NCBI GenBank assembly: GCA_963575745.1
Contig: CAUYUJ010000003.1
Span: forward strand, 1,116,001-1,180,000
Reading direction: 5' to 3'
DNA from: Prorocentrum cordatum
Lineage: Eukaryota
DNA: 64,000 nucleotides
Below are positions 3,388-58,669 of the stretch, one piece after another; the stretch's first letter is position 1; each line of letters starts with the position of its first letter. The notes beneath the pieces were generated by a model. The model worked only from the letters and a program-made list of their open reading frames with translations, did no database searches and had not been told where the DNA came from. A program made the translations under genes and the position numbers.

Positions 3388-4603
3388 CAATTGGTTTCCA
3401 CTGTATGTCTGAGGGACTGGGAAGCGGGGTTTGTTTTGATCATCCCAAATCACACCCCCACCACCGACGGCGGCACCCGCAGGCATCACTGCCAGGCGGG
3501 ATGCCGGGCCCCGGGGTGAGGGTGAGATTTCGGCGGCCTTCGAGACTGGCGCTCGAGCGTGGGCCATTCCCCAGATGCCCACCCCCAGTCGAGGCACCCG
3601 TTCGGTGAGGCTGCCCCCTCCCCCGTTGTGGCCGGGGGTGGGGGTGTCATTGTGGGTTGTCACTGTTTAGTTTGCGGCGGGCGAGGGGGAAGCGAAAAGG
3701 AGAACGCCTTCTCAGAAGGCGGCGGGACTCCCCAAAAACCCTCGCGCCTTCAGGGACGTCTCCTGCGTCTTCGGGGAAGGCTCAGGAAACTTCTCAGACG
3801 GCCGGGGACCTCCGCGCCTTCTGAGAAGGCCCGCCCCTTCTCACCTCCCCTGGGCTTGCCGCCGAAGGGGGCAAAATGCATAACACGGAGCGCCAACCAT
3901 TTGATCACATCACCCCCTCGCGGTCGTCGGCACTGACGGGCTTTCTGCGCGAATGCCGAACACGTCAACTCTTTCCTCGGCCAGCACCTCCACAGAAACA
4001 GCGCAGGCTAAAAAGTCGCGGCTCTATTCCAGGCCGCGCTCTGGCACTGCGTTCCCGAGGCACGAGAGCTGGCATCGAACAAGGGCGCTCTGTGGCTCGC
4101 ACTCCGTTGGGTGCGCGCGCCATGTCACATCGTACTTCACAACGAAGTGATCTAAACGCAACGCCGGCGCAGTTCGACCGTCAAGAAAAATCCGCCGCTG
4201 CGCTTGCTTGATGGTGGAGTGTCAGGGCTTGCTGTTTGTCTGGTTGGGTTGCTGTTGTTCCCCAAACCCTAAGATGGGGGTTCTTGTTGTCCTCAATCTC
4301 CGAAGGATTACTGTGACCGCGCGGACCTTCCTTTCACCTCCTCCTCCCTTCTCCTCCTCCCGCTGGCAAAATATGATGATGCCAAATGATGGCGGTAAAT
4401 GCGATACGGCATGTTATGGTATGTGATGTTATGATAGTATATGATATATCACGTTATGTCAGGGCGTGGCATGTTGTTCTGTTATGATGTGAAGATGATG
4501 ACGATGACGATGCTCATGATGGTGATGGTGGTGGTGACGATGATGATGCTGATGATGATGAAGATGAAGAATATGATGATGCTGCTGCTGGCGATGAAGC
4601 TGC

Positions 4604-4662
<59 letters not shown>

Positions 4663-4789
4663 GCTGAGCAAACTCTGAGGATGTCTCGAGCGAGGCGCGG
4701 GTTTCAGCACCCCCAAGTGGGAGCCGCCAAGGGGCATTGCACTCCTCCGTTCGCGCCCAAATGGTGGCGGGGATGTCTCGAGAAGTTCT

Positions 4790-4935
4790 CTTGTTTGCAT
4801 GTTCAACATCCTCCGCTTTCGGAGCAGAGTTGGAGGATGTCCCGAGCGAGGCGCGCATGTTCGCCCCCAAGGGAGGCCAGATGTTGAGGATGTCTCGATC
4901 GGTTTGCCTGTTTTGGTGGGCAGACTCGTGGGCAC
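4790..4935 (+). repeat. Dispersed repeat with hairpin, copy 1 (copy 2 at ~23291-23430)
   Basis: Both copies share CATCCTCCGCTTTCGGAGCA...TGGAGGATGTC..GAGCGAGGCGC. Confidence 0.7.
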
Positions 4936-4944
4936 AGATTCTCC

Positions 4945-5240
4945 CCAGGATGCCACAAGAGGCTCCAGCAGGCTCCAGGAGGCCCCAGGAGGCCACAGGA
5001 GGTCCCAGGAGGCATCAGGAGGCCACAGGAAGACTCGAGAGGCCACGGGGTGTCCCAAGAGGCCCCAGGAGGCTACAGAAAGCTCCAGGAGGCCTGAGGA
5101 GGCTCCAGGATGCTCCAGGAGGCCGAGGCCACAGGAGGCCCCAGGAGGCCACAGGAAACGCCAGGAAGCAGCGGGAGACCCCGGAAGGCAACAGGAGGCC
5201 CCAAGAGGTCCCATGAGCAGGAGGCATCAGAGGGCCACAG
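4945..5240 (+). repeat. CCAGGAGGCC-type ~10-bp minisatellite
   Basis: Tandem degenerate units. Confidence 0.8.
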
Positions 5241-6405
5241 GAGTGGCTCCAATCCCATGTGTTTACGTATGCTCCCATAGGTTGGGCCTCACCTGGAGCA
5301 CGAATCCTTGGCGTGTTACGTATGTTTCTATAGACGGTCCTTCTTATGTGCATCTAATCCTAAATGTTTTACATATGTTCCTTTTAAATTGGGCCTCCCC
5401 TGGGGAACGACTCCTTGGTGTTTTATGTGTGTTCCTATGGATTGCTCTTTTCCTGTGGCCCCAGCGTAGTGGGGCGCGCGAAGTCCTCGGCCCTGTCGTT
5501 GCGACGGCGAGAGGGTCAGCTTCGACGCTGTCCGATCCATTTCTGCCACCATCCTGCGCTCTTCCTTTCCCGCGCGGATTTGGCTCAAGATTTCGAAGTG
5601 TGCCTGGGTGAGAACGGGGCTATCCGCCCCCATTTCTAACTGGCGAAACACCCTCCATTCTTTCATATATGTATATATATAGAGAGAGAGGAAAAACAAA
5701 GGTTTCTTATGTTCCATCCGTTTCTTTTCTGCTTCAGCTTCAGCATCGGCCATTTTCTGCGGACAGAACATGCGTCTCTTAGAGCTGGCGCCAGCGTGGG
5801 CGCTGCGCTACGGCGCGCCGCGCTGGGCGCTGTTCCCCCGCATAGGCAGCGAACAGAAATTGCATTTCTCCAATGGAATGCCGGCCTCCCCCCCTGGGGC
5901 GCTTGCAGCGACCGCGGGCGCTCGGTGCTCTCCGGAGCAAACCCGCGCCCACTGCCAACCGACTGGACCGGGACTAGGGGCGGGGTCGCTTGGAGGAGGA
6001 GGCTGAACGCTCCTGGGACGATTCTGACGGCTTGGCCTTAGCGTCTGTCCAACAAGGAGTTCTGGAATCATGGGGGGCCAAAGCGTGATGTCCGACGCCG
6101 CAAGCATGTTTACCCTGAGGCGCGGGCAGTCCCCCTTGCCTTTCCTTTCGTTGCTGAGCGAGTTCTGACTGGCGAAGTTCTAGATTAGTTTGTGCGCTTC
6201 TCTGTTTGATCACTCCTGTTCCTGCTGCGCCGCGCTGGCAAACTGAGCCGTTCTTGCGCGGGGAACAGCCGCCGCTTTCTGCTCGGAAATTAATGCAGCC
6301 CCACGGGTTCGCTCTATCTCACGCTGCATCTGACGCTCTGTGTCAGCCATTTCCTCCGCTGAAGACTTGCATCCCCCCATGATTGTCAATCCGCCTTCTT
6401 CTTCC

Positions 6406-6688
6406 ATCTTTACCCAACTTAGGCCCAACCAGGCCAATATCGTCAAGTAAGGTAGTCCTCACTGTTGGGGTCCATGCTAGCGGGTCAATGGACATCGTGG
6501 AATGTAAAAGGATATGTGTATCCAGTTAAGCTTTGGCTAAGGAGAGTATACAGTATGAGCACGCGCGCGCGGGGGCGGGCGCGGGCCTTTTTCCTCTCCG
6601 ATCCACGAATAGCTGCAGACAGCCAAGCATGCGTCTGCGTATGTGGTTATATTTACATCGACGGCGGCAGGGAGCGCATGGCAACGAC
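6406..6688 (-). repeat. 3' LTR of the Tpt1-carrying element
   Basis: Copy of 15733-16016. Preceded on the - strand by the PPT-like run GGGGGGAG (about 6688-6695). Confidence 0.8.
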
Positions 6689-6699
6689 TCCCCCCGCGG

Positions 6700-9210
6700 C
6701 GGCCTGGCCGCAGCGCCGGCCAGGGCCGACGTTCTACCATCGGGACTCTTCGTTCCCGACGGCGTCGAATTACAGCGCGCGCGGGCGCGAGGCTCTCGCA
6801 GCCGCCAGCAACCCGCAGGTCAAGCGGCATTGATCACACGGCCATTGGCCGGTGATAGCAGGTGCTGATGGATGGGGCGAAGCTCCAACAGCCTCGAGCC
6901 CTTCCACGTGCGCCTCTTGTCGCATTCTCTGGCGATAAGCTAGGCGCGCATGCGCCGGCACAGCCTCCAGAAAGTCATTGGCGTAAGGCGTCTGTCGCTT
7001 GCAAGCGCCATCCGCTGTCACGGCGCCACGGGTCCCAGTCGTCATTGCGCCGATCGGGCCAGTTGCTGTAGTCGCCCTTCCCGCGGTCTTCTCCCGGCCC
7101 TTTGCTCCAGCCCCGGCTGGGGGTGCCCCTCCACGCGCTCCAGGCGTTGTCAGTAAGGGTTCGGCTTTGCCCCCTGGCCCAGGGGCGGCGCTATTCCTCG
7201 GGAATCTGCTGGGGGGGGCGACGGCGCCGCGCCGCCAGACTCAGTTTGGCGGAAGTCCCTGTACAGGCACGGGCGGACAGCGGGCGGTGAGGCCGTGCGA
7301 TCACTCCATGGCTATCTCGGTCGCTTCCCGCCCTTGCCCTTGCCTGTAGTGTCTGGAGGGGGTGGAGCAGCGCCGCGTGGCGCGCTGCCCCTGCCACCCT
7401 CGTTCCGCGGAAATGCAGCCGCTTGTTTCGCTGTCGCTCTTGCGGGCGGTGACGCCGAAGGGCCGTGCGGCCGCTTTCTGCTGATTGACCGCGCAGCCCG
7501 TGCGGTGGTCGCCACGGGCTGGCGAGTCCGAGCCCCTCGTGCCATTGGCACGCGTGAGGGGCGACGCTCGTCATCCGAGTCATGGGGCGCTGACACCCCG
7601 TGCTGTGCCCGCGCCTGTAGTGCGTAGACAGCAGCTTCGTATACGTGCAGCGCCCACTTCTCAGCCGCCGGATGCCTGAGCGCGTCGACTGTGAACTGTT
7701 GACCTGGGAATTGCGCGTCTGACTGGGACTGCAGCACGTATTGCATGCAAGCCTCGATGGTAGGCGCGTCGTCTGCAATGTTCGGCAAGTCCTGCCGGTT
7801 CATATATGTATATATACACATATATATAAATATATATATATATGTCCTTGTGAACTAACTCGACGAGCGCGTGATGCGACTTAATGATGTCGAGCTCCCG
7901 AGAGAGTGTCTCACGGAACCTGTCCACCTTTTCGCGATGAACGCGTTTGGCATCATTACTTGCGTGATCCATGTCAACCAGTGTCCACTGGTAATCCTTC
8001 GAGACTTCGATGGTAGCCCTGTGTGCTCGTTCAGCCAGCCATGTCTCACTTGCATCACCTAGGTCTGGGTCATACGCACAGAGCCGTGGCGGATCACTCC
8101 ACATTGCGTATAGCTGTTCTTCGCATGAAGCGCAAGTGTCCGCCTTGTGGTGCGTGAGAAAGACGTTAACCGTGGTGAAGTACGCCACCACCTCATAGGC
8201 TGCCTGTCTGATACGGCACTGGTTGACCTTGCTCGTCACGTCGCCCTGGTATGTGCTCTGGCCCCTGCCGGGTGTGCGTGATCCCGTTCGCCTGCGCATT
8301 GCGCGGCCCCTGAACGCCATCGGCGCATCTGCGGACCGAATCCTTCGCTGGCTGTTGGAGCGGGCACGCCTACCCTGGGCACGCGGTCTTGGCCTAACGG
8401 AGGGAGCCCGGGGTGTGCGCGCGTCTCGATGGCGCACAGCCCTGTTCCCTCCATCTTCTGGGGCGGCCAACTCTTCTCTTGGTTTCCAGAACTCCTCGGT
8501 TTCGTATTCAATCACATTCAAGAGACTGTCGAGGCGCTCTGGGAGATAATCTTCATTCTCGTAACACCATTGACGCTATCCTACGGTAGGCTCAGTGAGA
8601 CCAGTGGCATCAGGGTCCGTTGTGTACCAATCAAAGATGTTCAGTATTCCCATATCTGTACCATAGCCCGTCTTGTCTATGCGCCGGGCCCAAGATGTCC
8701 CACCATTTCCATGGCGGGCAGACAGCTATTGTCCAGCTGGCGGGCAGCGGTGATATACCTGATACGACATCCATCGATGTGCCTGCTTGCGTGCCTGGAT
8801 CTCTCGCGCCTTGTTGCCATGGGCAGGGCGTTTGTCGTTCGGCGATGCTGGGGCCCATGCGAACACCGATCTTTCGGCGGACAGAACTGCCGTCTTGCCC
8901 GCCATAGCGGCATAAGATCGCGCGGTGGCCCCGTCGTAGGCATCCTTTCTCCATCCCTCGCGGTAACGCGCTTGTGTGCGATCAAGATTATTAACAACTG
9001 CTGCCCTGGACATTGTCCGGCCGTCACTGCGTGTATGGTACGGGCCTGGATCCCCACGGTCTCTGAGGAACCGTGCGGCTCCCCAGCCAATCGCTGGTCT
9101 CATCTTGTCCCCAGATATCATTGATGCCTCGTATATGATCCCTTCACGGCAAACGACACATACTATCATGCCGTACCTCGACTTGCGCCCCATGTGACAC
9201 ACGAGGCATA
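6700..9210 (-). pseudogene. C-terminal part of the element polyprotein, unknown function (Cys pairs, basic/Gly tail), interrupted by (TA)n
   Basis: Same-strand ORF fragments 8726..9202 (GMIVCVVC), 7661..8521 (CASC), 7312..7821 (KGKGGKR) and 6770..7045. A TA tract at about 7801-7843 splits them. Confidence 0.4.
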
Positions 9211-9439
9211 GATCGTCTTCCCAGCCTGTGCTTGCTGAACTTCAGCAGCGAGCTCTGCGTCGAAAGGACCAACATTGTGTCCTGCTCGGATCTGCTGCTT
9301 TGACTCCAGCACGTCGACGCACCCGGTCTTGGCGCGGGTGACGACTTGAACCGTTGTTAGCCGTCTATCATAAGTGACGTGCCATGACAGCTTGTTGCCA
9401 GGCGATTCTGAAAACGTGAAGATCTGCCAAATGTTACCC

Positions 9440-10330
9440 CATAACAATACACTGTCCGTAAACATTTGGCCCGTTGGCAGTCTCCAGTGCTGATGCGCCT
9501 CTAAGTGTCGTGCACTCATGGTGGCGAAATATTTGCCGTTGAAGTCTCAAATGTACGTCAAATACTGACCGCTTAGTCCGACCCAAGATAATCCTTAGAA
9601 GCCCCGTCCGGGTGAAGGAAAGTCGGGAATCTATCGTCGCTTTCCTGGCGGATGCGTCGTTCGTCTCTTTCTATTAACTGTTCGGCTTCCGAGAAGCTAA
9701 ACGGGACATGTATCTCCCCGGGCGTCAGCGCGTCAAGATCCTGGATCTCATGCGCGTTTGGGGACACTGCCACCGTGTATGCTACAGTGCCATATTGCCT
9801 GATACCCGTCGTCACGTCATAGAGCGGGGCTATCGTCCCAGCCTGACTGTGTCGCACGTCAGCGTCAGTCAACGGAATCAGTCGTGCACCGTGCTTCTCG
9901 CTCATGCCAGGATCGTATCTGACGCTTCTGCGATATAGGCTTATGATCCTTAGCGAATCGCCGTGCGCGGCCCTGATCAGGAGAGGTCGCGTTGTCGGAG
10001 TTATATGCACATCACTTCCCTGTGACGAGTCAGTCTCCGTTGATTTCGGAGGCTCCAAACCCTTTCTAGGTGATTTCATAGAAGCTCGAGTCCCAGTCCA
10101 TTGGGCGGGAAGTGGGGCCTTCGTGAGCCGCATTTATCTCTACTCCCAACATCTGCACTTCGTGCGGCGAAAGCGTTGCGACCGCATGCATTAACTGGGC
10201 CCACGGGCGATCGTAGCCGGCATCAGTGAGCATCCTTATCAGTACGTCCACTTCCACCCATCCTCCCGACCTCAGCACATGGGCTGAACTGCGTCTAAGA
10301 AGGTGGAGCGCGAGCTTGGCAAGACGGAAT
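9440..10330 (-). pseudogene. Tpt1/KptA (RNA 2'-phosphotransferase, ADP-ribosyltransferase fold)-like domain, frameshifted
   Basis: Motifs in the correct order: LAKLALHLLRR (~LSKxLSxxLRH), RSGGWVEVDVLI (~DxDGWVxVDxLL), IRAAHGDS (~IRANQGHS), ALTPGEIHVPFS (~GLxPMxRxHVHLS), ETANG..FTD (~SxNGVWLTD; needs a frameshift). Confidence 0.65.
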
Positions 10331-11689
10331 GCTTCACCGCGGCCCAGCCCGCTCGCGATAGCATATAGCTTCGGGCGTAAGTGTGGATACATCGGCACCA
10401 AAGCATTGTCTGATCCAGGCAAATTGCGGCTCTCGATCGTGTTATACCGAGCGCGCAAATATCTGTTTACCTTGGCACGCTCGGCCTCTGGCAGGTGCCT
10501 GATGTAATCCAACAGCGGGTCAGCCACGAAGTCCGCGTAGGCGGATAGCCGATCACTTAATATCGCCCGGGCCATTCGCTGGCTAGGGAGCATTGGCCAA
10601 TTATTGTGTAATTCATCTATCAGTCGTGTTTTTTCAGGGGTCAGTGCAGAAATATTGTTTCGACGGTATCCTGGCGATGCAAGAAGAGGGACTCTTTCGC
10701 CATTGGCGAGTAACCCCTCATAGGTCAGCTCTTCGCGTTCGAGTCCGATCTGGGCTAACCCGCCTACGTCCTCATGCGACGGCCACAGTGTCATCATATC
10801 CTCCTCTGATATCTGCCTCTCTTTGGGAAGCGGAAGGTTACCGTCGATGAGAAAATAGTGTTTACCAAATGGCGTTCCCTCATCTGGAACATACGGACGA
10901 ATTTGCGGGTCGATCTGTAGCGCAGCAACAAGTTTCAGTCCGGTTGCTTCCGCGCTCTCTTCTTCCCTTCACATGCATTATCGACATCGTCGGTGCGCTC
11001 GCCTTCTTGATCGGCCGCAAAGTCCAGCTCTGTTTCCTCTTCAACTTCAGACGAGGATTCGTCGGACTCATCGACAGTCACGGCCATGATCTGTTTCCTG
11101 CACCACTTTTCGTATTCCGTCTTCTCATGCTCGATTATTTCTGCTTTGGCCCTCTTGTGGTGGGCATCCGCCCATCTGCTGTGCATCCGGCACCTAGGCG
11201 TGCATCTATCCAGGTGTATGGCTGTCGGGGGCCAATCCATGCATCTGCAGCGCCTTCGCGCCAGGTGAGGCTTCGAACCCTGGGTTGCGACCATCCTGGT
11301 CGCCCTGAAGCATCCAATGTTCGAGCATATGTAGATCTGTTCGATGCGGGAAGCAGCCGGCGACGTGATGACGTAGACGTTCCTCATTCTCTCAAGCTTC
11401 TCCTTCGACATCGTCGGGGGCTGATGCGCCGGGGCTCCGAACCTCGGATCTTCGGGCTGCGTGAGCGGCGCCCCGCGGGGGTTTTCGAAGCGCGGCTGTT
11501 TGCGATCAACCGTGTACGACCGCTTGAATCCAGGATGAGAAAGCTCCGGAAGAAGCCGATCGCCAAACTCCGGACGATGTCCCTGGCAGAACCGAGCCCC
11601 GTGGGCAGCGCAGGACAATGGGCCAAGTCAGGCGGGGAGGTAGGCAGGCCATGATGCAGAAAGCGGCGACGGCGTGGCGAGAGGCGCAG

Positions 11690-14543
11690 CCTTCTTGCGG
11701 CGCAGGTACATGCAATCTTGTCGGCTCAGGGGACATTGCCCCTTTTGCCAGCGTCGGCAGATGACGGACTTCTTGAGCCTCCCATCTTTCATGGTAAGGG
11801 AGTCCTTGTCCCCCCCACCAGTCTTGTCGCCGCTGGGTCTTGCCCCTCGCATGTTGATCTGCTGTGTTGGATCCTCCTGTTATCTTCTCCCCGGTCCTTC
11901 AGTATCTGGTTTGCAATTCTCCCCAGCAACCATTCATGCGACTTCATGCCCTTTCCGTACTTGTCGTTGCTGTTGTCATACATTGCAAGATTCATCGTCA
12001 TGCAAGGGCACTTCTTCTTCTGTTTTTAGAAGTGGTTCTCTATGGAGGGCCTGAAGGACTTGTGGGGTGTCTCCATCCAGTGTCACCCTCATCCATTCAT
12101 CGTAGAAGTGGTAGAGGTCGCGATCCGCCTCTTTGCCTTCCCTCTTGATCTAGATGGCCATAAGGTCCTCGTAATTATACACCTGCCATGGTCTTCGCGA
12201 GTAGTGACATGGGTTTGAATAGTGCGAAGAATCTATCTTCCTGCAAGTAATCCCCCGTCCTTCATTAGGGCAGAGTCAGCGAGATCAACCTCGTTAGCAA
12301 GGTGCCCTAAGGCATGAGGAGCACTTGGGCCCCTTTGAATATCATTAATGTTCGCGATGGGGTCCGCAGCTATCCGTATGTCCAGGTTCCCGAAATAAGG
12401 CCCTGGGTCTTTCAGAGCCTTTGCCTTGACCTGTTCTGGCTCGAATGCCTCGGCAATCCACTTTGACGCCAACACATGATTTTGTTGCGAGCTCGATGCC
12501 ACCGCTCGAATGACAGATTTCTTCCGCATACGGAAGGATCCCGCGTCTGGCAGCGGGTCCAGAGATATCTTGTCGATTCGATCTGCCGCAATCTACGGTG
12601 TCACCACAGGTACCAGACTGCCGGAGTCCGGGAGCCCTGGGCCCCCGCCTCCTCCTCGAGGTCCCGAGGGCGGTGGTCCCCCACCCCCCAGATCGCCTTG
12701 CCCGGCTCTCTGGGCATCGGCGTATCGTCTGACTCTACGGTTCGCAGCATCCTCATCTTCTTCCTCGGAAGATTCATCATCCTCGTCGTCGGAATCTCCT
12801 TCCTCGGAATCCTCCTCTTCGGAGTCGTCTTCATCGTGTGAATCGTCTTCGTCGTCGTCATCGCCGTCGCCGCCATCATCAGGGTTACCGCCCCCAGGCA
12901 CGCGACCGGACGCACCCTTCTTCTTCCCCGGCCCGTCTCCGTCACCGTGGGCACTGCCCTGGTGTATGGGGCTGATCGCCATCCCCTGCGAGGCCCCCCG
13001 CAATGGCCGCGGTTTTCTTCGGCCGGGCTGGCGTGGTGCATCCAGGGAAAGTGCTGACAGGCGGTCCGTTCGGTTTCTTTTTCTTCCTTTCTTCCTTCTG
13101 TTCCTGTGTTCTGCTAGGGGCCAATTCCCTTTGATGGCTGTCATTGTCACTGGCCTTGGCAGCGGCAATCTCTGATTCTCTCATTATTGCCTCCGCCTTT
13201 TCGCGCATCTCCTCAGCCTGCGCTCGCGCTGGTTTCCCCATCGCGTGCGCGCGCTGTTCGGCTTTCCCTTCAAGCTCGTGAATGCGTCGAAGGGCTACTG
13301 CCTCTTCATTGGCCCTTTGCTTGTCTCTGGACCGATTGGCTTCTTCCTCTTCTTGCATCCTTTTCTTCACCATGGCTTCCTCCTCTTCATGCTGTCTTCT
13401 CAGCGCTGTCTCATGGTCACGCATGCGATCAAACTCGCACTGCGCGCGCCGCCTCATGACCCAATCAAAATGTTGTTCACAAAGCTGCCTCTGGCATCTT
13501 TCGCATGTGCGCGGAGCATCGGCCACGTGGCATGTAAAGCACCTGGTTGCATCTGATGTAGCCGGCCTGGATCGTGAATCCTCCCGCTGGGACATCGCCC
13601 CACGAACGGGGCAAATCCGCGTCGCCGATGCGGAGACGGCCCCCCTTGCCGCGCTTGTCACACCTTGGAGCCCTTCCTGCGCCATTTGCATGGCCTGTTG
13701 TCTGTAGGATTGTTCACGACGTGCTTCCCATTCCTGCACGTTTGATACAGCTTCTCTGTGGAGACGCTGCTTTGTCTCCTCAGCTTCGGCCTGAGCTTGC
13801 ATTTCAGCTCTCCGCAGTGCTTGCATTGCCTCTTCTGCCTCGGCTTTCGCGTTTGCGTGACCTGCCTGGGAAGGTGCCACAACTATCTGTGCATTATGTT
13901 GCAGCGATTTCAACTCCGTCGCCTTTCGTAGGGCCGCCTCGTGTTCTGCGAAAACTTCTGCCCTGACTCGGACCAACGCTTGGGCTTCTCCGCATGCCTC
14001 CCCACGAATCGCCATAGCTGAATCAGAAACACGCTGGAGTTCGGCCTGCACACTGGCTGCCCCAATGTGTGCCTTCCTGGCTTCGTTCTCCATCTGTTGC
14101 TGTTTTGCCTGGGCTTCCTGTAGGGCCATATCTGCTGTCCTCTTCGCCTCGACAGCGTTCTGTTCCAATCGGCGCCCCTCGGCGATGGACTTGGCTGCGA
14201 TCTGTTCCGCCTCGGAAACGGACCGTTCCTGCGCCGTGGTTGCCTCTCGGAGCTTGGCGCGAACCTGTTTCTCGAACTTCGCGCGGAGTGCTTCCTGGGT
14301 CTGTTCCGCGACCGCCTGTTCGGCCCTTCTCTGCTCCTTGGCCCATTTATCTGCTTTTAGCGCAGCCTCGTAGAGGACATCCTTCTGCTCCTTTTCCCTT
14401 TTGAGAATTGCATTAAGCTCATGTTCGGCCTGCTGTGCCGCCCGTTCATCCTGTGGACTCTGCCTTGCTTCCATGTCTGCCATCATTGCGCGCATGGCCG
14501 CTATTTCGGAAACGCGCTCCTGCTCAAGTTGGTTTTGCCTCAT
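11690..14543 (-). pseudogene. Decayed Gag-like region: long coiled coil, acidic/Gly linker, capsid-like segment, CCCH zinc finger
   Basis: ORF 12942..14543 (E/A/Q/R/K-rich coiled coil). Then 12233..12529 (KWIAEAF...LDIRIAA...LLAGR*IL), a YNYEDLMAI segment near 12155-12180, ORF 11789..12001 (KSHEWLLGRI...NR) and ICRRWQKGQCPLSRQDCMYLR (about 11700-11763, final His read as Arg). Resembles dinoflagellate LTR Gag from memory. Several frameshifts. Confidence 0.6.
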
Positions 14544-15732
14544 TTCCTGTTGCAGCTCCCACTCGCGGTGTTTTCACGCAAAGCAATTGCGTTGCTTCGG
14601 TGGCAGACATTCCCGGCAAAGATACGCGAGATTGCACGGGCCACATTGGACGGAACAGCCCCGGCACACGGGCTTCTGACATGGTAGATCATCGGCAGTC
14701 CTGCCCGGGCACCGACTCTCGTGGCCCAGCTCGCACGCCGGCCCGCGATTCGCACATGACTCCCTAATTGAGAATCGAGGCGTTGATGATCTGGACAGGG
14801 AAGGCCCGTGAACGGACCCCCGTGAATTGCGACTTCGGCCGCCCCTCCCCGACCTCGACCTCCTGGAAATCGAGCCGGGTGACTCGAATAATTGCCTTCC
14901 ACGGGGTTTCAGATCAGGGGCCGGCTCGGGGCCCTCTTGGCCACTCGAGCCGCCAGGCTCGGTCATCGGGCGCTTCTCGCACGGAGATTGCTTCGCGTCC
15001 ACCGGGTCGCCCCCAGGGGTTTATCCGCGACGTGAATCTCTATCCCAGACCCCCCGGGCGAGGCCGCGAGGTCCTTTGACGTCCGACACTGCCCCGCGGG
15101 CTTTGTGACTTCCCCTTTCTCCGGACATAGTCCGCATCCCACTTCTCCGGGGCCCGATCGGACGCCGATCCAAAACTCTTCTCGGACGAGCTCGACATCG
15201 CCATCGCCTTCGCAGGCGCGGCGACGCGCGCTGTCGTCGTCCTCGCCCATGAGCTGGAGTTCGCGACATAGGCCTGATCCACGTCCCCCAACAGCGGGTT
15301 GCGCGGGCAGGGCTTTCCCCCATGCCAATCATCCTCCTCGTCGATGTCATCGCCTCGTATTGGGGGTGTCTTCTCGCCCACGGTTCACAGGGGTATCATC
15401 ATTTCCCGATGGCTCACATGCTGGAGACGGGGTTCGTCTATTGGCGAAGGGGTTCTTCTTGATCAGCTTCTCAATGGCCTTGTCATCCTCCTCTGCAGGT
15501 GATATTGGTCTCTCAGGTGGTTGATATTATGCAGCATTGTTGCCTTTGTCTCTCGGATGCGTTGCGAGGTCGACTTCGCCGGTCCGTCGACTCGTTCCTA
15601 AAACATTTCCATACCTTTGGGGCTGGCCCCCCCTCCCGTGTTCTTCTCCACGTTCACGGAGGTACTCGTAGTTGCCCCATCTTTATTGACGTGGTCGACT
15701 GCCCATAACCCAGAGCCTTCGGCTGATAATCC

Positions 15733-16016
15733 ATCTTTACCCAACTTAGGCCCAACCAGGCCAATATCGTCAAGTAAGGTAGTCCTCAGTGTTGGGGCCC
15801 ATGCTAGCTGGTCAATGGACATCGTGGAATGTAAAAGGATATGTGTTTCCCGTTAAGCTTTGGGAAAGGAAAAAAACGCAGTATGAGCACGCGCGCGCGG
15901 GGGCGGGCGCGGGCCGTTTTCCTCTCCGAACCACGAATAGCTGCAGACAGCCAAGCATGTGTCTGCGTACGTGGTTATACATACATCGACGGCGGCAGGG
16001 AGCGCATGGTAACGAT
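15733..16016 (-). repeat. 5' LTR of the Tpt1-carrying element
   Basis: Copy of 6406-6688. Imperfect inverted termini ATCGTTACC...GGTAAAGAT on the - strand. Confidence 0.8.
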
Positions 16017-16151
16017 TTCCTCTCGTGCTCAGCTTCCTGCGGAAGCATTTGAGGCGCCTCCGAATGTTGTTGAATCAGGCGGGCACTCTGGGCCAACAAC
16101 ATCAATATTTCCTTCTCTTTCTGATGCCGTGGAGGCCGGTCCACCCATCCA

Positions 16152-16280
16152 CAAGAAACCCGACCCTGAGACCCCAGGACGCCCATTGATTTGTGGCGTG
16201 GGAACGCCCACTTTCCACAGCAAAACCATCGAAACCCAAGGAAACCCAGGGCACCCTGGATGCATATAGGGTGTTTCTTG
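16152..16280. mobile_element. 129-bp MITE-like repeat, copy 2
   Basis: Colinear with 3259-3387 and has the same termini. Confidence 0.55.
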
Positions 16281-16999
16281 GCATGGGCCTCCACTGTACT
16301 TCATCTGGGCAGCCATCAGCTCACCAAGGAGATTCTCTCTTGCGGCGGACCTTGCCTGATTCTTTTGTTACCATTCCAGGGACATGGGATACTGGCAGTT
16401 GTGTTCTTGTAAATCAATGCAGTCCTCAAACAGCCAGACAACAATGCAATGCCTACTCGGCAAAAATATTACCCGCGCGCTGGCCTTCGAAATGGGCAGT
16501 TTTCTCTCCCCGATTTTCCCGGTCAGCGATTCTCTTTTGCCGTTCGGGATGTATGATCCCCGGGCCCAAGAGGGTATACAATTATTTTGTTTGGAACAAT
16601 CCCCGCCGAAACCTTCGGCGTTTGTTCCCAACGGTGCGCGCGCCTACTGGAACGACGCGCGCGGGGCCCAGCGGTCTCGGCCGGCGCGGCGGCTGGGCCA
16701 GGTCGCAAGGCTATGTTCCCCGAAAGTCTTGCAGCCCCAGGGCCCCTGACGAAAGAAACCAAACCACGTCCCTGGAGCGGCAAACCAGCCCCCAAAACGA
16801 GTTTTGCGCAACCCCAAAACTTGTTCGGAGAGAATACGCAGCCTGTTGAAAGAAAAAAGGAAGAACAACTACAGTTGGACGAGAAAGAGGCGGGCGACGA
16901 AGGAGGAGGAACTGAGGCGGACATTTCCCTCCGCCTCCTGATCCGGACGCCACGTCCTCCTCTGACAACGGGTCGCATGTCGCGTTTGACCAAGACGCC

Positions 17000-19040
17000 G
17001 TGAAGTGGTGGCTGGCGTTTTCGTGATATTGTGTTTTATCCTGGTCGGTTCGTTTTTGACCCAAGGTCGTATCTGGCAATATGTTATGCGATCTTTTGTT
17101 GTGGACTGGCCAGCGTGACGTCGTGGCGCCTTTCGCCTTTGTTATGGTTGATATTCGGTCGTGGGTGCTACTGTTTATCTATATGGCCAGCCTGGGCTTG
17201 GCGCGCGCGTCGCGTATGATGGGCCGCCCGAACTCGGTCTTTGCTGAATTATACGCTATCGCGTTGTGTTCATGTCTCATCTGTTCTATATGCATATGTT
17301 CGTTTCTGTTGCGATATCGACGGGGCAGCGCGACGTCGCGACGCCCGTCGCGCTTGATATGTCGTCTAATCGGTCGTCGCCGCGCCTGCTTCTTCCCGTG
17401 GTCAGGCGCGGGCGCGACTGCGCCCTTGATTCGCCGTTGCTGTCTTTAGCTGTGTGCAATTATGTTACGCTCGATCAAACATTATCCTGCGTTGCTACCA
17501 TATGTTAAATTATGTAGCCGACGGGGCGGCGTGACGCCGTGACGCCTGTCGCATTTTACCCGTCGTCCGATCGGTCGTTGCTGCGCTTTTTTTGTGCTCT
17601 TGGCCAGACCGACTTCGGCGCGCACCTCGCGATTGATTCTTCGTTGGTACGGCCTAGTATGTCATGATGTTATTATTCGACTGTATGTGTCCTTTCAGTT
17701 CGCGTATGCTCTGTTATGATCAACTCTGTCATCGTGCGAGTTGGCATGGCATGATGTGACATGCCCTGTGGCACCGCGTGGTGACATCGGATCGGTTATG
17801 CTTACGCCATTAACTCTGATGTGGCTTAGGGTGTGATCAGTTCGTTATTCTATGCGACATGGCGTTCTAACAAATCATGGTATATCGATATCGTTGCCGC
17901 GGGGGTAGCGTTAAACTAATAATTATGCCTTGGTATGCTGGTTACGGTGCGGTGCATTCGTTATATGATTCAGATTTCATAATGTTCGATGGCACTGTGC
18001 TCTATTGTGCGTGTTTTGTTCCCGGCGGGCGACCGTGACGCCGCGGCGCCTGTCGCGCTAGATACGTCGTCCGATCATTCGTCCTTGCGCCTGTTCGGTC
18101 CTGTGGCCAGCCTGGCCTCGCAATGCTTTGTCATGTTATGAAACTCTGTGAGCCTGTGAATATGTGTTCTGTTGTAATGTGGTACGCCATGGTGTGTAAT
18201 GGTATGATATGTCATACTACGCTATGCTATGGCGTGCCCTGGCTTCGGGTGCTCTGACATATGAGGTGTTGTTATGCTCTGATTGCTTCATGAAGCCATT
18301 GCATGATTTTTTCCTCTGCCGTGTCCTCTTACGCGCCGCTATGGCATGCTCTGAATTGGTACGCGCTGTTATGTTATGGTGGCCTGCTACATTGGTATGT
18401 GAAGATATAATGTTTGTCGCGCTACGTCATGGTATGAATTGTCGTTGTTTGGAATGGTATGTGTTTTGATGGTGTGCTACGGTGCGCCGTGTTATGTCAC
18501 TGTGTGGTAATATGAGATGTTATACCTTCGTCTGCTATGGTATAATATGATATGGCATGACATGACGCGTGGTGTAGTGACACGTTATGCGTGACCTTTT
18601 ATGTCATAGAATATAATGGTATGCTATGCGCTGCTCTGGTATGATGTCGCGTCATATGCCGCGCCCTGTCATGCGATGATATGTCATATGTGTTGCTGTG
18701 TTGTGTGTGGCGTTGTATGTGCCGCGATGACGTGCTATACCATGACATGCCATGCGTTGCGAAGCTGTGGCATGTCCGGTTTGGGCGTGCTCCGGCCAAC
18801 GATGTTTTCATGTGGTACGATTGCTGTGCCATGATGGACGGTCCTCTGCGCTGTGATGCTGTGTTATAGTATGCACGGATTTGCCATGGTGTGCCATGAC
18901 GCGACAAGGCATGTCATGATTTGGTATGTTTACGCTCGGACATGTTATGTTATGTGGTGTGCCGGTGCGTTCTGCGCTGTCATAGTTTACGGTGTTGTGC
19001 TGCGCGGGTTCCCCCTACCATTTACCACCGCTGTCATGTT
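17000..19040. repeat. Degenerate TATGT/CATGT pentamer-rich region with a recurring GCGTGACG..G.CGCC.GTCGC block
   Basis: Block recurs at ~17113, ~17327, ~17529 and ~18033. ORF-poor. Confidence 0.55.
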
Positions 19041-19929
19041 ATGGTTTTTACGCGCGGAGCGGGGCTTTCGGGGATACTCGGGGGACCTGGGGATCTGGCG
19101 GCCGCGGTGTGCAGAAGGGCGCGGGGCGAGGGTTTCGGGGGCACTCGGGGGCCCCGGGATCTGGCGGCCGCAGTATGCAGAACGGTGCGAAGTGGGATTT
19201 TGGGTCGGGAACCTGAGGAGTTGGTTCCCGCGGTGTGCACAGCGGCTGGGTCGGGGGGTCTGTTCTTGACACCTAACGACCCCAACCTGTCGGGCGGTGA
19301 ACAAAAAACATGCTAGAGGACGGTCGTCAAAAAAGGCCGGTGGAACCGCGACTGCTCCTTGATCTAGTGCGATCCATTTAAGGATGTCCGAGTTTGCCTC
19401 TGCTGACGGGGATCGGGGATCTTGGGGGAGGAGTATATATATATACACACATATACTAGAATCATCGCGCGCTTCGCGCGCTTTTTGATTCTAGCCGAGG
19501 TCAAGGACAACTCGAGCCAAACTTCGTCGAACCGCGTCCGGAGAAAATAAAAAAAAAGTCGACGGAAGACTCGAACAAACATAACAGAGCTCGTCCTTAG
19601 AGCTCGTCCTTAGCGCTCGGGCTGCTTGATTAGCGTCATTGTCGTTCGCGCTGCTCTCTGATCGACTAAAGTCCGCTCAAAAAGACCCCCTGGGGCTGAA
19701 AACCGAAAGACCTCGTCGAACCTCGATCCTCGATCGATCGGTCCTCGACTGGCGCCTGCGACGACGAGCGCGACGACGGCGGAGGCGACGACGACGACGG
19801 CGGCGACGATGATGACGACGACGGCGGCGGCGCTGACGACGGCAAGGGCGACGACGACGACGACGGCGGCGCCGCCGCCGTCGCCGTCGAGGTCGTCGCC
19901 GTCCCTGCGCGGGGGGCGGGCCGCGGGGG

Positions 19930-21000
19930 GGTTCTTGGAGTCTCTTAGGGGCCTCTTTGGGGGATCTTCCCCTCCGTAAGCCCCCGCTGGGTTTGGCCTA
20001 TTGGGGGATCTCTTGGGGGCCTCTTGGAGCCTCTTAGGGGCCTCCAGGGGCCTCCTGGGGCCTTCTTGGGGCGGAAGGGTCGGATTTTCGGGTCGGGCTC
20101 CCCCTCTTGGGCTCCTCTTGGAGCCGTTTTGGAGCTCTCCTAGGTCGCATTGGGGACCTCTTGGGTGTCTTGGCCCCCTCTCGGGACGTCTTCGGAGCCT
20201 CTTGGGCCGTTTTGGGACTCTCTTGGGGGCCTTTTGTACCGTCGTCATCGCTGCGAAGACCGACATGTCGTATATGCTAAAAATATACGTTTCCAATGCA
20301 AAATCAATGAGTTTGGCCTCCGGGGACCCTTTTGGGAAGCCTCTTGGGGCGTTCTCGCGGTCTCTTGGGCACTGTGAGAACCGTCTTGGGCGTCCAAGGG
20401 CTAGCTTTGAGCGCTCCGGGGCCGCCGTGGAACGCTTTGGGAGCCTTATGGGGCCCTCTGGCCACGCCTTGGCCGCCTCTCGGGCTGTCTTTGGCCGTGC
20501 TGGTAGCCTCTTGGGGCCGTCTTTGGGGCCTCTTGTACCGTCGTGCGCGCCGTGAAGACCGAAAAGTCGTAGGTGCTGAAGATGTATGTTTTCTAATGCA
20601 AAATCAATGATTTGGGCCGCTTGGGGCTCCCTTGGAAAGCTTCTTGGGGCGTCGTAGCGGCCTCTTGGGCTCTATGGGGGCCATCTTGGGTGCCCATGGG
20701 GCGATCTTTAAGAGCCCTGGGGCCGTCTTGGACCGATTTGGGAGCCTCTTGGGGCGCCGTGAAGACCGAAAAGGCGCTGATGCTAAACATGCACGTTTTC
20801 CCATGCAAAATCAATAATTTTGGCTGCTTGGGGCTCCCTTGGAAAGCAGCTTGGGGCGTTGTAGCGGCTTCTTGGGCCCTATGGGAGCCATCTTGAGCGT
20901 CCAGGGGCGATCTTTGAGCGCCCCGGGGCCGTCTAGGACCGGTTTGGGAGCCACTTGCGCCTCCCTGGGCACGTCTTGGCCGCCTCTTGGCCCGGACAGG
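19930..21000. repeat. CTCTTGGGGC-based repeat with three higher-order units
   Basis: GAAGACCGA...ATGCAAAATCAAT recurs at ~20255, ~20554 and ~20761. Confidence 0.75.
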
Positions 21001-21073
21001 AGCGTTCCCGGAGCCCCGGGGCGGCCATGGGGGGCGCAGGTACCGGCCTGGCGGCCCCGATTCCCTTCCGCCA

Positions 21074-21144
<71 letters not shown>

Positions 21145-23054
21145 CATATATATGTATGTATATATACATATATGTACACATATTTACATATATATATATA
21201 TGCATGTATATATATACACTCTCACTTTTCCACGCCCTGGGCTTGACGGGTTGAACCGGTCAAATAAACCCTGCAGCCTCGAAACTGACGGGGTAATGGG
21301 ACACCGCTGCATGGCCCCCGGTTGAATCAGTAGTTTGCACTAGCGAATCATATGCCTCTATACTGTTGTCACATAGTCATTTCGGTTTTTCTGGGAACGG
21401 AATATCCCCAAATGGGTCCCTCAGATGTTCTATCGTATCTGACTCTCGGGGGCTCAGTACTTCAACCGGTGACCGAAAGATTCCCTCAAACTCTGCTCTC
21501 CCAAAAGCCTGCGACCGGGATACCTGAGGGATGGTTGAACCAAACCCCGGCATACCGACGCACTCTGCTAACACCATGCCGCGATCGTTAGCTAAACCAC
21601 CGTTCAAACCGATCGCCTGGCTCGCAGCATTGCGGGATTCTGCTTTCAATGATGAGTTCAACAAGCTGATCTCTGAATCGATGAGCGCGGATAACTCTCG
21701 ATCAACGTCCAATTCCCTCAAGTCGGTCTTATCTTGTTGTATGAAGGGGATCATGATTCGGCATGTGTATCAAAGGAAACTCTATTGGCATCATGGATTG
21801 TGTACCGCGGCGCGGCTGACTAGCCAAGTCGTCGATGTGAACAACATCAAGACGCTCGGCAGCTGATAACAACTTCTTGGCCAAAGGGCCCTAATATTTT
21901 GACCTATTGATTGGTAGATGACCTTGTTGTACTATAGACACTTGGTCTCCATTCTCAATGGCTGGAACCTTGACCGATGACACGTCTGACTAACAATATC
22001 CGGTAAACGAATCTACTGTAGTCGATATGTGCGTGCGCGAAGGCGCCACACCCGGGAAGAGGAGAGGGCGCGCGCGCGAACCGTTTCATCTTGAAGCAAC
22101 AAACACAAAAAACGTTCGGCATAAGTCAATGGCCCACGGCAGCAAATTACGACGGCGGCGTCGGCGGGCGACGGCATGGATGGAGTTATATTAACTTTCT
22201 CTAGGATCGATCCTCCCCCTCATCGCGGACCCAATTATACAATGTACCATCTGATTCTGCGTCCCAGCGGCACTTCCTAGACGGCCCCAGGGATGCATTG
22301 ACGAGTTCGTGCCCCCACCCACCACACCAGCCCAAGACAGCCCAAAGGCCCCCAGGGAAGCCTAGAGGCTCCGAAAAGTCCCCCCAGAAGGTTCCAAACA
22401 GATCCCAAGAGCCCTCATACGTCTCCCAATGAGGTCGCCCCTGGGGCCTCCAAAGGGCCGCAAGAATCCACGCAACAGCAGCGGAGGAAAAAAAAAAGAC
22501 GAATCAACAACACCTACACGCAGGCAGCGCGAGAGGAAGCGGCAAACACCACATACAACATCGTAAGTCACACAGATCCTCGTTTAGGGGTCAGCGGAGT
22601 GGCCTGAGCCTCTTGAAAAACGAGGGACTCTGGCGATACATAAAAGGAGACGAAGTGATGAAGACAAGGAAGAGGACGAGGCAAAGGGGGGAGGGCTGGA
22701 TGTGAGAGGTAAGAAATAGGGAGCAGGACGAGAAAGCAGGCGGGGGGAGTAAGAAAAGGAGGAACAGACAACGAAGACGTGGAGTGAGGAGGAGTCGGGA
22801 GAAAGAGGAGGGAGAAGAGGAGGAGGAGGAATGTGATGGGAGCAGTGAGGAGAGGAAGAGGAAGGAGTATGAGAAGGAGGGGGGCAGTTCGGAGGAGGGA
22901 GAGGCGTAGCGAGGAAACGGGCAAGAATTTCACTCCCCCCCATGTTTGTCCTGGGCATACCGCTCGGATTTGAACCCTTCGGAGCCCACTCGGGGACGAA
23001 CGATATTACACGGAGGGCAGGAGAACCATTCCACCTGTCTCTTGACAGCTGATG

Positions 23055-33719: not shown

Positions 33720-34886
33720 TCGATGCTCGAACCTGATCTTGCCAAATCGGGGTCCCATCTTCCTTCGCCCAGCCCGTAGCCCGTGGGAGGTGCGGACCTA
33801 TGAGACGATCTTCGACCACAGAGTCGCGAAGCACACGGCTTGGAGGCGCGGAGGGGTGGTTGAGCTTTTTATTTTTTTCGTGTACACAGATATACACAGG
33901 CATACACCCACTATATATAGGGTGTCATGCACACTGTGGCTCGTGTAGGCATGTATTACATGTATATGCACTATGTATGTGGGCTGCACAATCTAGACGC
34001 ACGCGTGTACACACATATATGCACTATTGGGTACACACAGTATGTTTACACACAGCATGCATGCACACATTACATGCGTACACGCACGCACACACACACA
34101 CACCATATACACAGTCATGTGGTAGGTGCGTCTTCGAGGGGCCCAGCAGGGGGCCACCAGCCTGAACCCATGAATACACCCGACACGCGGGCCGACTTAA
34201 GTTCAGCGTTTCGGGGTTGCTCCTCCATCGTCATTCCTCCCTTGAGCGATGTGCGCAATGATCGCGGGTGGGGAGGGCAAGCTGTATTTCGACATCACCT
34301 ACACCCGCGCGAACTTCTGTACAGTGACTGGAGGAGGCGCGGGGCCGTGATTTGGAGCCCCGTCGTCGACAAGACGAGGAGGAGGATGAGCAACAGCAAC
34401 AGGAGGGGGGAGGAGGATGAGGAGGAGCAGGATGAGGAGGGTGAGGATGAGGAGGAGGAGGAGGAGGATCGAGGACCCAGGAGGAGGGGGAGGAGGAGCT
34501 AGGAGGAGGATCGAGGAGGATCGGGATGAGGACGATAGGGCGGAGGATGAGGAGGGCGAGGAGGAGGACGAGGATGGCAGGATTCTCGAGATGTCGACGG
34601 GCCCACGCGTTCCATGTCTAGTCGCAAGCATGTGCACTATCTGATTTGCTCGTGTAGTTTCTTGGGCGCTGGCGACCCCGACTCCGACCGCCAGTTCGAG
34701 CTCCAGCGGACGAAAGGCTTGGTGCCACGGGATCGGGGCATGAGCTCTTGTACGTGCGTCCATATGATTATATATACACATATATATATACATACATACA
34801 TACGTACATACGTGTGTACGTACGTACGTACGTACCATATGTACGTACATACATACATATACATACCCACATGCATGCACATACGC

Positions 34887-34919
<33 letters not shown>

Positions 34920-35302
34920 CCTGCAGGTATACACATACATGTCTACATACCTACCTGTATACATACACCCATACATACACACACACACACCTACATACAA
35001 ACATACATGCACATACATACATACACATACATACATACATGCATGCATACACACACATATATACATATATATATATATACGCGCGTACATGCACACATAC
35101 ATACATGCATGCATGCATGCATGCATGCACATACATACATTCACACATACATATATAAGCATGATTCCATATACATATATATATATATACATATGTATTT
35201 ATATGTATACACGCTGGAAGAATTGTGACTGGCTGTGCCGATCGGGCATTCCCTCCAGATGTGGTCGGCGTGACTCAATCTATGTTGCTTCAGGCTCCGT
35301 GA
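33720..35302 (+). CDS. Possible small multi-exon gene, unknown product
   Basis: Coding-like islands between microsatellites: NLILPNRGPIFLRPARSPWEVRTYETIFDHRVAKHT (~33730-33836), EGKLYFDITYTRANFCTVTG (~34273-34333), FLGAGDPDSDRQFELQRTKG (~34659-34718), RIVTGCADRAFPPDVVGVTQSMLLQAP* (~35218-35302). Splice joins not verified. Confidence 0.35.
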
Positions 35303-57554: not shown

Positions 57555-58315
57555 CTGCCCTTCGTGGCCCCGTTGCAGACCTTCGTGGCCCCCTTGCTTT
57601 GTTTCGTGGCCCCATTGCAGCCCTTCGTGGCCCCCACGCTTTGTTTCGTGGCCCCGGTGCAACCCCTCGTGGCCTCCTCGTTGCCCTTCGTGGCCCCGTT
57701 GCAGCCCTTCGTGGCCCCCTCGCTTTGTTTCGTGGCCCCGTTGCAGCCCTTCGTGGCCCCCTCGCTGCCCTCAGTGGCCCGGTTGCAGCCCTTCGTGGTC
57801 TCGTTGCAGCCCTTCGTGGCCCCCTCGCTGCCCTTCGTGGCCCCATTGCAGCCCTTCGTGGCCCCCTCGCTTTGTTTCGTGGCCCCATATATGTATGCCC
57901 TTCGTGGCCCCCGCTCGTTCGCGCCCGTGGTGGCCCCATATGCATGCCCTTCGTGGCCCCGCTGTCGCCCTCCGTGGCCCCCCCACTGCCCTTCGTGTCC
58001 CCATTGCTGCCCACAGTGGCCGCGTCTTTACCCTCCGCGGCCCAACATACGTATGCCTTTCGTGGCCCCCGCTCGTTCGCGCCCGTTGTGGCCCCATGTG
58101 CATGCCCTTCGTGGCCCCGCTGTCGCCGTTTGTGGCCCCCTCGTTGTCCTACGTGGCCCTGGTGCTACCCTCAGTGGCCCCATCGTTGCCTTCTGTGGCC
58201 CCGCATAATCTGCCCTTCGTGGCCCACGCTCGTTCGCGCTGTTCGTGGCCCCATACGCATTCCGTTCGTGTCCCCGCTGTCGCCCTTCGTGGCCTACTTC
58301 GTGTCCTTCGTGGCT
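57555..58315. repeat. CCCTTCGTGGCCCC minisatellite (~19-22-bp unit)
   Basis: Many tandem degenerate units. Confidence 0.9.
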
Positions 58316-58347
58316 CTGCTGTCGTTTTCTCTCGCTCTCGGTTTCGC

Positions 58348-58383
<36 letters not shown>

Positions 58384-58669
58384 TTGCCGTCGTCGTCGAC
58401 GTCGTCGTCGTCGTCGTCGTGGTCGGTCCCCTGTCCGTCCCTCTTGGGGTCGGGTCGATGGTCCGCGGCCGCCCCGCCGATCAGCGCTGCCGCTGGCCAG
58501 GCCGACGGTCCGCGACCGCTCCGCCGCTTGCCGGGGCCCGGCCTGCAGGGAAGAGAGGTATACCCCCCAAAAGGGGTTCGATCGAAGACGAAAAGGGCGG
58601 GTATCGAGGGTTTGGGGAATTCGCGTTATTCGACACTCGAGCAGATAAGGGCGAACAGTCTTAAAATGA

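Follow-up and report, generated by a model that had tools for sequence, protein, structure and literature searches.

A probable Tpt1-type RNA lobe in a decayed copy of a multicopy algal gene family

The RNA 2'-phosphotransferase Tpt1 is known as a small enzyme that stands alone and has a unique chemistry, and its roles beyond fungal and plant tRNA splicing are debated. Its Arg-His-Arg-Arg tetrad is described as essential and as gripping both phosphates (2' and 3') of the junction; in the HGT motif, His and Thr bind the 2'-OH of the NAD+ adenosine, the double mutant being dead; and the third active-site Arg is Arg68, which lies in the RNA lobe (aa 1-85) of Clostridium Tpt1 (PMC6333775). Our search of the full-text literature found no paper linking a dinoflagellate with Tpt1 or KptA.

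Here, we describe a Tpt1-like region within a 64,000-nucleotide window (the whole stretch of DNA that was analysed). Our preferred reading, to which we give a probability of about 0.62, is that the window holds a decayed copy of a multicopy algal family whose module starts with a Tpt1-type RNA lobe and would bind phosphate ends. Under this reading, positions 11689-7008 on the minus strand would be a non-functional, 5'-truncated member of a multicopy gene family from a eukaryotic alga. The intact family protein would be ~1,900 aa long and would carry a central module at about residues 1085-1330 of its full-length relative P0001 (window 10335-9454), the first half of which would be homologous to the winged-helix RNA lobe of Tpt1/KptA. 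Better-preserved relatives retain the three active-site residues of that lobe (Arg-His in LRH, Arg in IRAxQGHS), from which we infer, by analogy with Tpt1, a role for the intact module in binding phosphorylated ends or junctions of nucleic acids.

The family resembles Tpt1/KptA/TRPT1 (PF01885, PTS_2-RNA) in its N-terminal winged-helix lobe, in the matching order and register of LRH, GW and [IV]R..G.S within it, in a His-Gly-x placed at the HGT spacing, and in a consensus that retains three of the four Arg-His-Arg-Arg tetrad residues. Unlike Tpt1, it falls below the Pfam threshold, and a variable acidic linker of ~50-60 residues splits its lobe ahead of the last strand; GHS is mostly GDS, HGT has become HGA, and neither a conserved fourth Arg nor RxHVH was found in the family. 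Whereas Tpt1 stands alone (~180-230 aa), the family module lies centrally within a ~1,900-aa protein without any other recognised domain, and the family is multicopy, with decayed copies. Generic winged helices (ESCRT-II Vps22/25/36, the La motif, linker histone, the Rpa2 winged helix), which were compared structurally only, lack the phosphate-binding residues of LRH and R..GHS, and their identity to the models is mostly 4-17%, against 23-24% for Tpt1 (model 2, below). We take the family to represent a new, divergent variant of the Tpt1 domain, which the window carries as a pseudogene. A diverged Tpt1 RNA lobe missed by curated libraries, in a giant multicopy algal protein, would widen the known reach of the fold and, if true, would offer a first functional handle on a large family without other recognised domains.

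The window has a GC content of ~57% with sparse long ORFs, and no Rfam family was found across it. An earlier note on this DNA had pointed to five colinear Tpt1 motifs, with LRH read as LRR and QGHS as HGDS. All of the quoted strings lie within 9440-10330 on the minus strand, and both substitutions are present as described, the second within RPLLIRAAHGDS; the strings are nonetheless spread over three frames. The first frame is the ORF 10968-10066 (300 codons from stop to stop), which holds LRR and GGW, carries EAFRLAKLALHLLRRSSAHVLRSGGWVEVDVLIRML followed by VQMLGVEI, and terminates at a TAG. The second, 10133-9573, contains RPLLIRAAHGDS, KHGARLIPL, RQYGTVAYTVAV and DLDALTPGEIHVP, so that HGDS and EIHVP both fall here, and the third, 9546-9166, carries YFATMSARHLEAHQHWRLPTGQMFTD. 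The motif strings are thus real and colinear, yet do not form one open frame (Table 1).

Table 1 Positions of the family copy, its motif strings and its lesions in the window
Feature	Position	Strand	Remarks
Degenerate, 5'-truncated family copy	11689-7008	minus, changing frames	tblastn; corresponds to P0001 residues 709-1887
Piece corresponding to P0001 residues 709-747	11573-11689	plus	tblastn E 1.75e-6, 51% identity over 39 residues
Tpt1-like domain region	10335-9454	minus	EAFRLAKLALHLLRR through HWRLPTGQMFTD; agrees with the extent given in the earlier note
First part of the winged-helix, RNA-lobe-like module	10335-10141	minus	LRR, SGGW, DRPWAQLMHA, VQMLGV; HHalign against KptA residues 5-72
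LRR	10299-10291	minus	LRH in relatives
SGGW	10269-10258	minus	
In-frame TAG	10068-10066	minus	EIT-stop-KGF in the window, EITKKGF (Lys) in P0009
1-nt frameshift in the acidic linker	10035-10030, near 10033/10032	minus	deletion relative to family fragments
RPLLIRAAHGDS	9989-9954	minus	counterpart of the Tpt1 IRAxQGHS strand; third tetrad Arg kept, GHS replaced by GDS
KHGA	9896-9885	minus	likely HGT counterpart, by spacing and family conservation
194-nt stretch holding EIHVP	9725-9532	minus	no counterpart in P0001; ends in stops in the window copy
EIHVP	9716-9702	minus	inside the 194-nt stretch
YFATMSARHLEAHQHWRLPTGQMFTD	9531-9454	minus	conserved family segment; possibly the counterpart of Tpt1 C-terminal NGVWLT, non-significant (HHalign P 0.21-0.26)
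HWRLPTGQMFTD	9489-9454	minus	last motif string
Further in-frame stops	8728-8726, 8578-8576	minus	inside homologous, aligned sequence

P0001 (1,899 aa; 'unnamed protein product, partial [Prorocentrum cordatum]') matched 99% of a 300-aa query at 55% identity (E 1.4e-94) and was the only full-length relative found, in a search among longer proteins; among proteins of similar length, none of the 1,396 candidates scored was a homologue. An exhaustive search of representatives identified 33 relatives at E ≤ 1e-3, with 14 at E ≤ 1e-10 and four at E ≤ 1e-30, most of them fragments of 61-212 aa. Searching with profile A1 gave four matches, two of them new and both short fragments. Ten relatives were traced to their sources, seven to a EukProt set labelled Pyramimonas sp. 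CCMP1952 and three to ENA; P0030, from JGI, is an uninterrupted ORF call on a metagenome contig. P0001 carries no Pfam, PHROGs or NCBIfam domain, the ESM Atlas held no usable match for its residues 1040-1400 or for P0030, and scans of metagenomes with both proteins and of viral contigs with P0001 returned no relative. The family alignment, which is shallow (Neff 2.7) and largely made of fragments, shows conservation across the Tpt1-like region.

Taxon labels within the family conflict: P0001 is labelled Prorocentrum cordatum by NCBI, whereas the closest fragments (76-89% identical) are labelled Pyramimonas sp. CCMP1952 by EukProt, a conflict noted among P0001, P0002-P0009, P0024, P0026 and P0034-P0036. 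The host is accordingly called here a eukaryotic alga, with a dinoflagellate as the most likely kind. Another relative, P0023 (566 aa), has LLRH, R..KGHS and His-Ala-Ser at the HGT position, with only ~25 residues from LRH to R..GHS, so that most of the winged helix is gone; the gap may reflect alternative splicing, mis-assembly or a deletion.

Direct sequence searches did not reach Tpt1. PF01885 (gathering score 26 bits) matched neither the window ORFs nor P0001 and, even at E ≤ 10, neither the 304-aa domain stretch nor any of 18 family members; PHROGs and NCBIfam scans gave nothing useful, and phmmer and profile-to-sequence searches of the PDB returned no Tpt1. When 1,260 six-frame window ORFs of at least 30 aa were scored with a home-built Tpt1 HMM from bacterial genes, the ORF 10968-10069 ranked first over LRR..GGW, at an E-value of only 0.024 (next, 0.46). 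We compared the family alignment with Tpt1 by HHalign, using E. coli kptA (NC_000913) and bacterial PF01885 genes from two phyla as the reference, in alignments of 21 and then 25 sequences. Against the 21-sequence profile, the 18-row family alignment gave a probability of 92.6% (E 4.6e-7) over 63 columns, pairing family columns 53-115 with KptA 7-72, and against the 25-sequence profile a probability of 95.6% (E 1.3e-8). The lobe columns alone gave a probability of 95.2% and a score of 50.2. As controls, reversing the alignment gave 11.7, and 100 column shuffles averaged 12.3 (sd 2.9, maximum 25.5), one value of the 100 being a repeat of the preceding one. Compared with KptA as a single sequence, the family profile reached a probability of 23% (P 9e-4) with the register unchanged. 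In that register, the family LLRH falls on Tpt1 LRH and SGGW on the conserved GW, and the winged-helix N-terminal lobe was accordingly scored as homologous to the Tpt1 RNA lobe. At the profile level, similarity to Tpt1 thus appears strong for one part of the domain, the N-terminal RNA lobe, and is limited to it. Of the Tpt1 similarity proposed in the earlier note, it is this RNA lobe that stands, by HHalign; the Pfam and PDB sequence searches recovered no Tpt1, and the NAD+ lobe reached only P 0.21-0.26 in HHalign.

AlphaFold without templates predicted a winged helix, a three-helix bundle on a small antiparallel sheet, both for the initial ~80 residues of the P0001 stretch (model 1, pLDDT 82-88) and for the equivalent part of P0030 (model 2, pLDDT 70-83). 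Both models were aligned to 48,161 PDB representatives. Tpt1 chains aligned in every case through residues 1 to ~85, that is, their RNA lobe; among the entries concerned, 9ld3 is presumably KptA, judging from the neighbouring entry 9ld4 ('TkoKptA'). The top structural matches were winged helices of ESCRT-II, and many unrelated ones fell within 1-2 Z units of Tpt1; for model 2, Tpt1 chains were highest in sequence identity among the structural matches (23-24%). Foldseek with both models found nothing at E ≤ 0.001, Tpt1 chains appearing only at E 2.3-3.6. In the P0030 model, IRVGVGHS, which follows the long linker, is a predicted strand (191-198) and falls inside the part that aligns with Tpt1 RNA lobes. 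Structural comparison with KptA, as suggested earlier, thus bore out a confident winged helix to which Tpt1 RNA lobes align, but not the part after GDS, where pLDDT was below 50 in both models.

We tallied the catalytic motifs after hmmalign of the stored relatives, which covered 18 relatives at LRH, 10 rows at IRAxQGHS and seven rows at HGT. At the LRH site, R-H was found in 7 of 18 relatives and x-H (x = Q, K, H, M, T, L, V) in 8, and the His was lost in 3; the Arg is therefore missing in 11 and the His kept in 15. By eye, P0023, outside this table, also reads LLRH. The window copy has lost the Arg-His pair of the tetrad (LRR). This loss is copy-specific: LRH is present in P0006 (86% identity to the window), and the His in 15 of 18 relatives. 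The Arg of IRAxQGHS is present in nine of ten rows (P0001 has His) and G-x-S in all ten; the window, with IRAAHGDS, retains this third Arg. The middle residue of G-x-S is Asp in six rows including the window, His in three and Gln in one, which supports GDS for GHS as a subfamily trait, as judged from these aligned rows. At the HGT site, His occurs in 7/7 rows and Gly in 5/7, and the third residue is Ala in 6/7, Ser in 1/7 and Thr in 0/7. The alternative raised earlier, a catalytically altered RNA/NAD-binding variant, finds support in GDS, shared by six of ten rows. Read across the family, the consensus shares GDS and HGA with the window but keeps the LRH His.

The earlier note had also found no clear HGT and had read RxHVH as EIHVP; an HGT-like motif is present, and equating EIHVP with RxHVH is not supported. 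KHGA lies 19 residues after GDS, close to the 18 from GHS to HGT in E. coli KptA, and its His is kept in all seven aligned rows, which suggests that His-Gly-Ala at this position could be the remnant of a much-diverged NAD+ lobe. From RPLL onwards, the best local HHalign alignment places LVHSVHGDS..KHGAL in register with IRAVQGHS..YHGTA, only at P 0.005. For the part after GDS, HHalign gave P 0.26 and 0.21, with PSGQIFTDRIP / ENGVWLTSTVA as the top local pair, and a PDB profile search with this part was empty. Relaxed HHalign runs disagree on where the RxHVH segment falls, and a conserved fourth tetrad Arg was found at neither placement. At low confidence, model 1 has a strand at GALL, a helix at STDVRQIQ and a strand at FTV, an order weakly compatible with the start of an ADP-ribosyltransferase lobe. 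EIHVP itself sits in a 194-nt stretch at which P0001 passes directly from HDLNAV to EVTYFATLS, and is not supported as a family motif. This stretch may represent an intron, an alternative segment or one peculiar to the window copy; by eye, no convincing pair of splice sites would make it a clean intron. At the same place, P0030 has ~100 extra residues, which would fit a conserved intron position.

The window copy is damaged. By tblastn, P0001 residues 746-1817 map to window 11594-7600 through frames -3, -2, -3, -2, -1, -1 and -2; the last two pieces (7347-7008) are weak (E 0.12-0.17), and P0001 residues 1-708 are absent from the copy. The plus-strand piece at 11573-11689 overlaps the start of the minus-strand match, which indicates a small inversion where the truncated copy ends on its 5' side. 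At the in-frame TAG, all three covering contigs of run X1 (one DNA run) carry T at 10068 where the window has A, giving AAG (Lys) on the minus strand. In the acidic linker, the window reads GD-stop and TDSSQGSD resumes in the next frame; P0026 and P0034 read GDTDSS uninterrupted, and the slip near 10033 is therefore a 1-nt deletion relative to them. No indel near 10033 appeared among the run X1 contig variants, although a missing row does not prove that the contigs match the window. Besides this frameshift, several more frame changes occur along the copy. Single-base indels are frequent errors in long-read assemblies, and those seen here may be assembly errors.

Run X1 contributed 424 short contigs on 7600-11600, 73 at ≥99%, 139 at 95-99% and 212 at 90-95% identity. 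A single site variant was carried by up to 10 contigs, and paralog contigs show indels at 9227, 9546, 9589, 10968, 11033, 8698 and 8726, of which 9546 and 9589 fall in the 194-nt stretch with EIHVP. These tiers and variants, together with the stops and the frame slip, indicate that the family is multicopy and that the window copy is damaged. No second copy of the region was found within the window, no direct or inverted terminal repeats flanking the copy, no poly(A) on its 3' side, and no relic of the dinoflagellate spliced leader within three mismatches. Decay, which the earlier note had offered as one explanation, is borne out by the three stops in homologous stretches, the frameshift and the copy-specific change of His to Arg in LRH. 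From the alignments, LRR, the TAG stop and the frameshift are read as copy-specific damage, and the odd 'catalytic' residues would in part be mere damage. The window copy is very probably inert, a pseudogene. The earlier interpretation was thus right in part, and each of its two alternatives, decay and an altered variant, holds in part.

Several other explanations bear on these data. The module could be a winged-helix nucleic-acid- or protein-binding domain without specific kinship to Tpt1, in which LRH, GW and R..G.S would be convergent and no NAD+ lobe would exist. The leading rank of ESCRT-II winged helices and the narrow Z-score distance between Tpt1 and unrelated winged helices fit this explanation, as do the absence of Tpt1 from Pfam and PDB sequence matches, the C-terminal part without significant similarity, and the presence of the first tetrad Arg in only 7/18 relatives. 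We nevertheless consider it unlikely, given that the profile match is at the sequence level (93-96% probability), lies far above the shuffles and the reversed control, and is exactly in register with the catalytic motifs; moreover, the segment from IRAxQGHS to HGT is colinear by a separate alignment (P 0.005), and Tpt1 chains lead in sequence identity among the structural matches of model 2. That the motif string is a chance resemblance, with no Tpt1-related or winged-helix domain at all, is scarcely credible: although the window sequence alone gave a marginal Tpt1 HMM score (E 0.024 among 1,260 ORFs) and curated libraries are silent on the region, the region is conserved in the family, the HHalign match stands clear of its controls, and two independent models are confidently winged helix. 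The HHalign and structural alignments already disfavour it.

A different objection concerns the state of the copy rather than its kinship. It could be an intact, expressed gene for a catalytically altered Tpt1-like RNA/NAD-binding protein, whose frame changes are introns and whose stop and indel are assembly errors or allelic differences. The P0001 gene model skips 9725-9532, so that some frame changes may be introns, and GDS, common to six of ten rows, is a stable family trait. Yet the TAG and the stops at 8728-8726 and 8578-8576 fall inside aligned conserved residues, not between blocks; other contigs have AAG at 10068-10066; the frameshift near 10033 breaks a stretch that is continuous in family fragments; the copy lacks the first ~700 residues of P0001, and its 5' limit carries an inverted piece; and by eye 9725-9532 has no acceptable pair of splice sites. 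We regard this explanation as very improbable. The preferred reading, a decayed copy of a family with a Tpt1-type RNA lobe, could also be carried further for intact members with LRH, R..GHS and HGA, such as P0030. These could be active, highly diverged Tpt1-type enzymes that use NAD+ to ADP-ribosylate phosphorylated ends or junctions of RNA or DNA, within the ~1,900-aa protein of an amplifying, possibly mobile element. We hold this extension to be distinctly unlikely; active enzymes of this kind would represent a new deployment of Tpt1 chemistry.

Several further features of the window were recorded. Directly upstream of the decayed copy, a 533-aa open frame (12942-14543, minus) is rich in Ala, Glu, Gln and Arg with a coiled-coil look and is Cys-rich in one part, CFTCH...CERCQRQLCEQH; neither a Pfam domain nor a match to P0001 was found in it, and its PHROG match is weak (E 0.025). 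A tandem array with a 10-nt period, of CAGGAGGCCC-like units in up to 19 copies, occupies 5006-5242. A simple repeat (IYIYIY in one frame) recurs at 7800-7852, ~21075-21200 and 34758-35078 and was left out of the contig comparison. For the ORF at 57599-58648 (plus), the Pfam model MINT_RAM7 scored below its threshold (E 1.1e-9; 38.9 bits, cut-off 108), a match that is probably compositional. Finally, the plus strand shows a sustained negative AT skew over 4000-22000, turning positive from ~22000; the long minus-strand frames at 7000-14500 fall in this stretch, and the skew may reflect strand-biased coding.
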